Positions 35,275 to 42,719 of a stretch of 64,000 nt of DNA are shown in pieces. Source of the DNA: a virus; IMG/VR virus record IMGVR_UViG_3300009124_000001. One strand, given 5' to 3'. Below the pieces are notes generated by a model that saw only the letters and a list, made by a program, of their open reading frames with translations, was not told the DNA's origin and did no database searches. A program made the position numbers and the translations under genes. Each line of letters opens with the position of its first letter. Position 1 is the stretch's first letter.

Positions 35275-35389
35275 TGAACTAGAAGTAAGACCATCAGGGG
35301 AATGGTGGAGTTACTATTTCCTTGCTACCCTCAGGCAAGGATATGAGAGACGGATTGGTAATCCTGCCTAGTCTCGGTCAAGCGGCAGG
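35275..35389 (-). ncRNA. PhotoRC-II-like structured psbA 5' leader
   Basis: CCTGCC/GGCAGG stem with GAGAC pairing to downstream GTCTC (pseudoknot), CCTTGC/GCAAGG stem, ACCAT/ATGGT stem; position upstream of phage psbA; family assignment from memory. Confidence 0.75.
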
Positions 35390-35436
35390 AGTGTTACACG
35401 ATGTTATGAAATGTAACATTTCGTAACCCGTTGACC

Positions 35437-38980: not shown

Positions 38981-39052
38981 TGGGAGATACTGGGATCGAA
39001 CCAGTGACATACTGCGTGTAAAGCAGGCACTCTACCTCTGAGTTAATCTCCC
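38981..39052 (-). tRNA. tRNA-Val (TAC), no encoded CCA
   Basis: GGGAGAT...CTGC TTTACAC GCAG...GGTTCGATCC...ATCTCCC A. Confidence 0.93.
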
Positions 39053-39055
39053 AAA

Positions 39056-39127
39056 CAGGTCCACTAGGAATCGAACCTAGAACATCCGCTTAGAAGGCGG
39101 GGGTTATATCCGTTTAACTATGGACCC
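39056..39127 (-). tRNA. tRNA-Arg (TCT), no encoded CCA
   Basis: GGGTCCA...CCGC CTTCTAA GCGG...GGTTCGATTCC...TGGACCT G. Confidence 0.93.
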
Positions 39128-42114: not shown

Positions 42115-42139
42115 AAAAAAAGAGGGGCGATTGCCCCTC
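42115..42139 (-). terminator. terminator of the riboswitch-DUF4278 unit
   Basis: GAGGGGC-AATC-GCCCCTC-TTTTTTT. Confidence 0.85.
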
Positions 42140-42144
42140 CTTTC

Positions 42145-42255
42145 TTATCTCTTTGTAGTGCAGTGACCTAGACTACAAAGTTGCGCGTCATGAAGTTTTT
42201 TCTTTTTGATCTCTTGCTGTTTAATGACAGTCAACCAATTAAGATTTTTCTTCAT
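42145..42255 (-). CDS. 36 aa basic micro-protein (not in ORF track)
   Basis: MKKNLNWLTVIKQQEIKKKKLHDAQLCSLGHCTTKR; ATGA overlap with the DUF4278 stop and GGAGG Shine-Dalgarno. Confidence 0.6.
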   Translation of the reverse strand: MKKNLNWLTVIKQQEIKKKKLHDAQLCSLGHCTTKR

Positions 42256-42392
42256 TTCTCCACCTCCACCTTTTTGGTGTAGACAGTACCACGATAGTTC
42301 ATGGTCATGGTCTTAGCCTCGTGCTTGTGCTCCTCTTTTGTATTATAAGGAATGCCACGATAGGCAGTGTGAGTGCTATAAAGATTAAGCAT
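42252..42392 (-). CDS. DUF4278-family protein
   Basis: Two YRG motifs (AYRGIPY, NYRGTVY); CAGGAG Shine-Dalgarno. Confidence 0.8.
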   Translation of the reverse strand: MLNLYSTHTAYRGIPYNTKEEHKHEAKTMTMNYRGTVYTKKVEVEK

Positions 42393-42424
42393 CGTACTAA
42401 CTCCTGAAAGTAAGGGATTGTTGC

Positions 42425-42683
42425 CCCGTTCCTTCAATCGTTTGCGTCCTAGTCATCAAAACATGCTGGGTCAGTATGATTGATCCATTGAATTAGGATG
42501 TCACTCTTCTCAGCAGGTGTGAATAGAGTTGTATCCTCTAATCCTTCTCTCAACCATAGAAAATCTTCACACCGAAGAAAATCTTCGGGTGGGACATGCA
42601 TGGCAAAGACTGTCAGTAATGACAACATAGGATGAACGCTCCGTTCCGCGACTTACTTGCGTCACCCGAAGGTGATGAACGAT
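42425..42683 (-). ncRNA. double glutamine riboswitch (glnA-type) with an ORF inside P2 of the second aptamer
   Basis: Two CGTTCA-P2-CGCAA...GGAACG units; E-loop AGTA/GAA; located upstream of DUF4278. Confidence 0.8.
42449..42628 (-). CDS. 59 aa ORF nested in the riboswitch P2 loop (not in ORF track)
   Basis: MLSLLTVFAMHVPPEDFLRCEDFLWLREGLEDTTLFTPAEKSDILIQWINHTDPACFDD; GGAG 10 nt upstream. Confidence 0.7.
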   Translation of the reverse strand: MLSLLTVFAMHVPPEDFLRCEDFLWLREGLEDTTLFTPAEKSDILIQWINHTDPACFDD

Positions 42684-42689
42684 GGTATT

Positions 42690-42719
42690 AGCATACCATC
42701 TACTATTTATACTTGTCAA
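42690..42719 (-). promoter_or_regulatory. early (TTGACA-18bp-TATGCT) and late (TATAAATA) promoters of the riboswitch unit
   Basis: Motifs read directly. Confidence 0.7.

Follow-up and report, generated by a model that had tools for sequence, protein, structure and literature searches.

The window, by which we mean the whole 64,000-nucleotide stretch of DNA analysed here (IMG/VR record IMGVR_UViG_3300009124_000001), derives from a T4-like cyanomyophage. The locus is a minus-strand operon of ~570 nt composed of a promoter, aptamer sequences, a 59-codon ORF, a DUF4278-like gene, a 36-aa ORF, and a terminator. The genes nrdA and nrdB lie upstream and talC lies downstream. Elsewhere, the window encodes a PhotoRC-II RNA (35306-35403, 56.4 bits) and four tRNA genes (at 425-577 and 38981-39127). 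Among the sequences compared, the nearest cultured relative is Synechococcus phage S-WAM1, with 81% identity in this region. The features are as follows, in the order of transcription.

42690-42719, minus strand: sigma-70-type promoter (TTGACA, 18 nt, TG-TATGCT), assigned by its 10/12 consensus matches
42711-42704, minus strand: T4-late-like element TATAAATA, within the sigma-70-type promoter
42681-42700, minus strand: inverted repeat that spans the -10 box, with its end at the aptamer's first C
42677-42681, minus strand: 5' strand CGUUC of outer-core P1, partner 42431-42427 (C-G in 275 loci, U-A in 6)
42662-42675, minus strand: P2a hairpin with a UUCG loop, empty in the window and gene-holding in 66/281 relatives
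42654-42661, minus strand: outer junction CGCA (G22/C23 equivalents) and E-loop 5' half AGUA, from the RF01739 alignment
42649-42653, minus strand: 5' strand AGUCG of the shared P3, partner 42440-42436
42634-42647, minus strand: inner-core P1, a local hairpin (G-GAACG-GAG-CGUUC) that includes GGAG at 42642-42639, supported by 53/53 covarying loci
42620-42632, minus strand: P2b 5' arm, includes the AUG
42449-42628, minus strand: nested gene, 59 aa, phrog_13397, with a hydrophobic N-terminus, two invariant Cys, and a helical hairpin
42447-42458, minus strand: P2b 3' arm, includes the TAG stop (AAG, GAG, CAG, or CGG in most homologs)
42436-42446, minus strand: inner junction CGCA-AA and P3 3' strand CGAUU, coding for a DAND tail in read-through homologs
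42426-42435, minus strand: E-loop 3' half GAA, G54, outer P1 3' strand GAACG, and long-range G60
42401-42410, minus strand: expression platform, CUUUCAG pairing with UUGAAGG (42437-42431) and overlapping the DUF4278 SD AGGAG
42252-42392, minus strand: DUF4278-like gene, 46 aa, two YRG motifs (PF14105, phrog_5049, phrog_545)
42145-42255, minus strand: coupled 36-aa ORF, like the N-terminal half of phrog_545 (E 0.002)
42115-42139, minus strand: intrinsic terminator at the operon end, a GC stem followed by a T run

Promoter-like elements are also found upstream of most relatives. At the inverted repeat over the -10 box, 248 of 276 relatives form a hairpin of -3 kcal/mol or lower, compared to 127 when shuffled, and the structure is kept while the sequence varies. 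Transcripts from a late-type promoter would carry this repeat as a 5' hairpin. Directly upstream of the -35 element, 152/274 relatives (e.g., L030, L057, L110, and L342) have an NtcA-type box (GTA-N8-TAC), against 1 in the control. The box, which is absent from the window, S-WAM1, and S-SM1, precedes the first base of the aptamer by 38-52 nt, and its spacing exceeds the one usual for activation by ~8 nt. At the other end of the operon, the DUF4278-like gene matches PF14105 at E 1.5e-4 and 22.5 bits, which is below the cut-off of 25.3. This gene resembles the C-terminal half of phrog_545 and the 36-aa ORF behind it the N-terminal half, like a split gene in reversed order (42392-42145). The 36-aa ORF and the reversed order are the same in S-WAM1.

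The sequence-only reading of this locus described the aptamer sequences as independent tandem units, with the ORF inside the second. Covariation leads instead to two interlocked glutamine-aptamer cores that are nested and share a P3 helix, an architecture that we hold to be very probable from the comparison of related loci. For this comparison, 281 distinct related phage loci were parsed from viral contigs, and topology was examined with patterns in which one variant base was set while any base was allowed at its possible partners. The loci were gathered by chosen patterns, so locus counts are not frequencies. Where the variable P1 pair differs between the units, the nested pairing fits 53/53 loci and the tandem pairing none. 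In all 53, a first 3' strand GCAACG is accompanied by a second 5' strand CGUUG; the first 5' strand instead varies together with the last 3' strand (C-G in 47, U-A in 6). The long-range 23-60 pair is informative in 94 loci; 84 fit the nested arrangement and none the tandem one. In the outer core, this pair covaries with 42426 between C23-G60 and G23-C60 and is Watson-Crick in 280/281 loci. Within the 38-member family that carries the window's gene, nesting gives an inner P1 pair of G-C in 31 and C-G in 7, and a tandem arrangement leaves 7 unpaired in each P1. The covarying variants stem from few lineages, with perhaps 3-5 events, all in one direction.

The P3 helix is composed of AGUCG from unit 1 and CGACU from unit 2 (CGAUU in the window), and compensated variants occur (AGUCA/UGACU, AAUCG/CGAUU, and AAUCU/AGAUU). 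By sequence comparison, the outer core is a canonical glutamine-I aptamer, with a 5' half supplied by unit 1 and a 3' half by unit 2. It matches the RF01739 three-way junction of P1, P2, and P3 with the conserved pocket bases. Its E-loop, AGUA from unit 1 and GAA from unit 2, is invariant in alignment A2 and forms only across the units; either unit taken singly is without half of it. The RF01739 model reads a natural empty form (L024) as a single aptamer with a 38-nt P3 insert, at 43.6 bits against a cut-off of 35, and the conserved core positions of the window differ from this form at 2 bases. In the window itself, Rfam at gathering thresholds found no glutamine aptamer. The outer core is missed because of its 224-nt P3 insert, and unit 1 alone scores 30.1 against the cut-off of 35. 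No known structured RNA, such as manA or wcaG, was recognized by Rfam in the insert. The inner core reads as a circularly permuted aptamer that has a local hairpin as its P1 and uses the opposite end of the P3 helix. In some loci both units carry the same AGCCGACU segment. Tandem duplication followed by strand exchange and the loss of one E-loop is the suggested origin of the pair.

The 59-codon ORF is a real gene, as had been proposed. Among the 38 loci with the same 186-nt insert, the median pairwise dN/dS is 0.22, consistent with purifying selection. The gene's own frame is open in 38/38 loci, while stops interrupt each of the other five in 37-38. Frameshifted loops had been named as evidence against a nested gene, and 219 of 221 related loci with a long inner insert keep the frame into the aptamer. 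The protein belongs to phrog_13397, which has members in 41 phage records and 33 protein clusters. Every one of the 284 nested proteins with at least 40 aa has a hydrophobic N-terminus and exactly two Cys residues, spaced 32-40 residues apart. The three main families of the inner slot are related to each other (hhalign probability 71-97%), and those of the outer slot have weak links to them. In an AlphaFold model (pLDDT 81), the protein forms a helical hairpin in which the two Cys regions lie next to each other; it is probably exported and disulfide-bonded. A Pfam search found no function match, Foldseek on the PDB found no matching solved structure (best E 3.2), and Atlas searches returned unnamed viral clusters only. 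A helix-turn-helix identity was dismissed on weak rows with a TM of about 0.6 over 46 residues. The ORF in the window has one Gln codon and no run of them. In RNA runs, shares were 0.04-0.05 and contigs were of relatives only. Splicing was rejected as the source of a contig without 42447-42632, which is an empty-slot relative; empty forms exist as DNA. A loose end at the 42447-42632 joint in the same RNA run reads as a short hairpin in P2b.

The ends of this gene are joined by the P2b stem. The positions first assigned to it hold, with TCCT at 42632-42629, ATG at 42628, TAG at 42451-42449, and AGGA at 42450-42447, followed by CGCAAA. So does the described length of about 12 bp, composed of 5 bp, a bulged U, and 7 bp (GUUGUCA/UGAUGAC). 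The loop had been equated with the whole reading frame; the ORF is indeed enclosed, but the loop is slightly shorter, with the start and end of the ORF inside the arms. The stem is found in both the minimum-energy and centroid folds of 42634-42445 (z = -3.52), and 0/200 shuffled sequences fold as well. With the protein and the outer 4 bp fixed, 150 of 2000 synonymous recodings of the window also give 12 bp, so that the extension in the window taken singly is only modestly beyond chance. Across the 38-member family, the closing stem has a mean of 10.9 bp compared to 7.2 +/- 0.35 when recoded (maximum 7.95 in 200 recodings), and here the extension is clearly selected. Other nested-gene families show a small excess (7.9 compared to 7.5 bp recoded). 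Complementarity of the arms is retained in homologs, including through changes on both sides: the pair at codon 2 is A-U in 23 members of the family, U-A in 8, G-U in 3, and G-C in 2, and the distant locus L558 has closing pairs GACU/AGUC.

Downstream of the aptamer, the DUF4278-like gene lies behind an inhibitory helix of the ON type, which supports the downstream activation proposed in the sequence-only reading. In the ligand-free state, pairing is predicted between the 3' strand of the aptamer and the ribosome site of DUF4278, and this anti-SD helix (UUGAAGG/CUUUCAG) has a predicted probability of about 1.0 in the window. In loci of the window's type, 166/178 have a complementary motif before the SD, compared to 15/570 control genes (2.6%). 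The G23-C60 group has the motif in 1/92, yet shows the same predicted loss of P1. Outer P1 is predicted at 0.92-0.98 in the cores alone and at about 0 with the downstream leader (210 loci). A YRG-type gene follows the leader in 265/270 loci. The leader is likely to bind glutamine, and glutamine probably switches DUF4278 ON, which fits the conserved helix between the aptamer's 3' strand and the DUF4278 ribosome site. Host type I glutamine riboswitches are translational ON switches for DUF4278/IF17, and the helix agrees with the way in which the host gifB riboswitch has been proposed to switch ON (PMC6212724). A point on the other side is that the DUF4278 proteins of Prochlorococcus are without IF17's GS-binding tail (PMC6212724). 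In S-SM1 (L435, GU071094.1), a DUF4278-type ORF that is unannotated in GenBank lies behind SSM1_203 and the aptamer. Some loci have an extra hairpin module of ~28 nt (ACGGAUC...GAGAAGG) between the aptamer and the DUF4278 SD, placed behind the last GGAACG (L035, L044, L110, L435, and others).

Control of the nested gene is harder to read. At any moment, translation through the ORF and folding of the core that encloses it exclude each other, as had been argued. The gene's GGAG is 10 nt before the AUG; its first two bases are the equivalents of inner G59 and G60, and the rest is the loop. It had been placed between the P1 strands of an aptamer, and it does lie between the unit 1 3' strand and the unit 2 5' strand, but those strands pair with each other. 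Because the GGAG overlaps bases of the inner binding pocket, it is plausible that glutamine turns the nested gene OFF, and we consider this almost as probable as its opposite. In a sample that shares the common P1 pair, is partly selected for ATG, and is phylogenetically non-independent, a GAG loop goes with an occupied inner slot in 120/121 loci, and 59 of the 60 empty inner slots are without it. This loop is also missing from 83 of the 221 occupied inner slots overall. The secondary-structure model gives no OFF effect, since P2b is predicted ligand-free (0.8-0.9 in partial transcripts and 0.3 at full length) and AUG accessibility is almost unchanged on enforcing the nested fold (0.43 compared to 0.39). 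Enforcing this fold costs 9-13 kcal/mol in a model that omits the E-loop, tertiary contacts, and ligand. The delay until the 3' arm is transcribed may govern ribosome loading on the nested gene.

The explanation that we favor, and consider reasonably probable, is a double-core glutamine riboswitch of type I ancestry with a nested fold. Glutamine would stabilize the nested fold and free the ribosome site of the DUF4278 (IF17-like) gene. The same fold would lock the GGAG and AUG of the nested gene, and its output would fall. Ribosomes on the nested gene would dismantle the inner core and P3, so the two states would exclude each other on each mRNA. When glutamine is low, the main product of the operon would be the small disulfide protein, which is probably exported; when glutamine is high, it would be the DUF4278 peptide, which may act as a brake on the host glutamine synthetase. 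The full picture, one sensor with two interlocked cores that acts oppositely on two genes, needs no protein regulator, and has loops that serve as exchangeable gene slots, is put forward tentatively, at somewhat less than even confidence.

Each P2 loop reads, from the comparison of loci, as a slot that is either empty or holds a gene for a two-cysteine protein of 45-75 aa; in the window, the inner slot is filled and the outer slot is empty. A recurring hairpin of 22-32 nt (UUCGCUAUUCGCAAAUAGCGAA type), with compensated variants, occurs in either P2 slot (e.g., L002, L130, and L322). Such slots would also suit a nested gene that is a passenger in the same RNA, with the half-sequence repeats as recombination handles that exchange small genes behind a strong promoter, similar to PeSL cassettes, and with DUF4278 alone regulated. 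Ribosomes would then load the nested gene during transcription whatever the glutamine level. Empty, single, and double occupancy are all found (48, 167+12, and 54 loci), and the window's protein family is in the other (first) slot in 11 metagenome sequences. One locus has an unrelated, Cys-free gene between the same arms (L579), and a distant homolog of the nested protein is free-standing, without a surrounding aptamer (L557:635-832). The stem is predicted ligand-free, and transcription reaches its 3' arm about 170 nt beyond the AUG. Against this, the coding sequence is shaped for a longer P2b, which is needless for a pure passenger, the codon 2 pair has changed from A-U to U-A and G-C, and the GGAG coincides with inner pocket bases. 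We consider a passenger gene unlikely, though it is the alternative that survives best.

The stop codon had been given a special role in the stem. This was not upheld: 32 of the 38 close homologs continue past it to a stop 5 codons farther on, within the aptamer, and its position in the stem is incidental. Most homologs are 64 aa long, with AAG in place of the window's TAG, a KDAND end, and a TGA in the P3/E-loop strand (at the position of 42436-42434); the window retains a vestige of this tail beyond its TAG (D-stop-DAND-stop). Among the 221 occupied inner slots, the stop is at the P3/E-loop TGA in 207 and in the arm in 10. The TAG form is scattered over the tree of the 38-member family, with 5 changes on a tree built free of the arms, at least 4 of them forced by supported branches. 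Both forms have 12 bp, and the bulged base alone shifts, from A to U. The first base of the arm codon is free (AAG, GAG, CAG, and TAG are all found) and AG is held by pairing, which accounts for repeated TAG, so that amber read-through or recoding need not be invoked. A targeted metagenome search found 105 further sequences with the ATG/TAG arms, all with the insert filled by an ORF, and exchange from slot to slot may be one source of the TAG form.

The location of most stops in the strand of the anti-SD helix also bears on a reading in which nested translation is the input. Ribosomes that finish at or near the TGA would melt this helix by translational coupling or reset the aptamer, and DUF4278 output would integrate glutamine and ribosome traffic. 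The same platform is, however, present in the empty forms, and the stop has repeatedly shifted 5 codons upstream. Such coupling would also turn DUF4278 on at low glutamine, contrary to the host precedent. We regard this reading as improbable.

The inner core could also be a scaffold, with the outer core as the sole binder of glutamine, similar to the ghost aptamer of singlet glycine riboswitches. The inner unit may function as an aptamer but is not a canonical one: AA and C replace AGUA and GAA, so that it is without an E-loop, and its permuted P1 is closed by a loop of 3-6 nt that must supply G60 too. Its long-range pair fails in 11/281 loci, compared to 1 for the outer core. The pocket positions of the inner core are nevertheless all invariant in the family alignment, whereas ghost aptamers retain no binding-site residues (PMC5066625). 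The inner long-range pair is Watson-Crick in 270/281 loci, with a joint switch to G-C in 2. A pure scaffold seems just as improbable as the input reading. Finally, a serial arrangement of two independent aptamers, with the start/stop-codon stem closing the second, is highly improbable: both P1 pairings are possible in the window alone, the P1 of tandem unit 1 is populated at 0.35-0.65 in the ligand-free model, and the alignment of Weinberg 2010 read such sequences as tandem, but this arrangement fits 0/53 and 0/94 informative loci, leaves each unit without half an E-loop and unit 1 under the Rfam cut-off, and has its stop in the arm in just 10/221.

The double-core leader that we favor shares most of its parts with known glutamine riboswitches. 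Like glutamine-I (RF01739), e.g., the Synechocystis gifB leader (PMC6212724), it has P1 CGUUC/GAACG, P2, the junction CG[C/G]A, the E-loop AGUA/GAA, P3, the long-range 23-60 pair, a downstream DUF4278 gene, and an inhibitory helix at the ribosome site. Unlike glutamine-I, it has a second, circularly permuted core in place of the P3 loop and a protein gene inside the P2 of this inner core, and in most homologs the 3' half of the aptamer is also coding sequence. The leader is encoded by a phage, and Rfam does not detect the window at its cut-off. The 'tandem' glnA RNAs of Weinberg 2010 (PMC2864571) include the same marine sequences in their alignment, with a few nucleotides between the units. 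That alignment treats them as independent serial aptamers, with the ORF and a split core in the flank, whereas here strands exchange between the units and the leader has an identifiable platform. According to PMC5066625, neither an expression platform nor a benefit was known for tandem glutamine aptamers. Counting against the explanation that we favor, such aptamers are described as binding non-cooperatively in the account given of Ames and Breaker 2011 in PMC5066625. Glutamine-II (Downstream-peptide, RF01704) has the same binding pocket and DUF4278 targets (PMC6698751). It was crystallized as a strand-exchanged pair and functions as a two-piece RNA (PMC6698751), a precedent for cores formed from distant strands. 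Unlike glutamine-II, the leader has no pseudoknot helix 3' of P1 and has an E-loop; a glutamine-II identity was rejected for the window, which scores 24.4 against a cut-off of 33 with broken pairs.

The PeSL cassettes of T4-like phages (PMC2839356, PMC4122927) have promoter/stem-loop repeats tied to the exchange of small genes, a possible parallel to the leader. Unlike the proposed riboswitch, PeSLs have no ligand sensing and no pairing across the flanked gene. In the related loci, slot occupancy varies and one family is found in both slots, which may or may not mark PeSL-like exchange. Competition between a translated ORF and leader RNA structure is also known from leader-peptide attenuators and dual-function RNAs. 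Here, the ORF encodes a folded protein of 59-64 aa under purifying selection within the helix of a metabolite aptamer. A literature search that was not exhaustive found no description of a gene-in-aptamer or interlocked layout, and an earlier account is possible. The leader is apparently an undescribed, conserved variant of a known riboswitch class.

In the usual view, a riboswitch aptamer is a compact domain that lies upstream of the controlled gene and does not code for protein. In this leader, a conserved helix spans a whole gene, and half of the aptamer is also coding in most relatives. About 420 cyanophage records match the leader, many of them near-identical isolates. A plasmid search found no match to it, and a loose pattern run on genome contigs gave mostly chance matches, with three full-core loci that sit among phage-type genes. 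In a 2017 census, only two glutamine aptamers were found in cyanophage genomes, and riboswitch use by phages was judged to be rare (PMC5473149). Given the number of matching records, gene inserts may conceal a common phage riboswitch from covariance-model searches. Moreover, the nested fold and anti-SD helix offer a testable answer on the platform and benefit of 'tandem' glutamine aptamers. If the proposed switch works, phage gene expression would be tied directly to the nitrogen status of the host.
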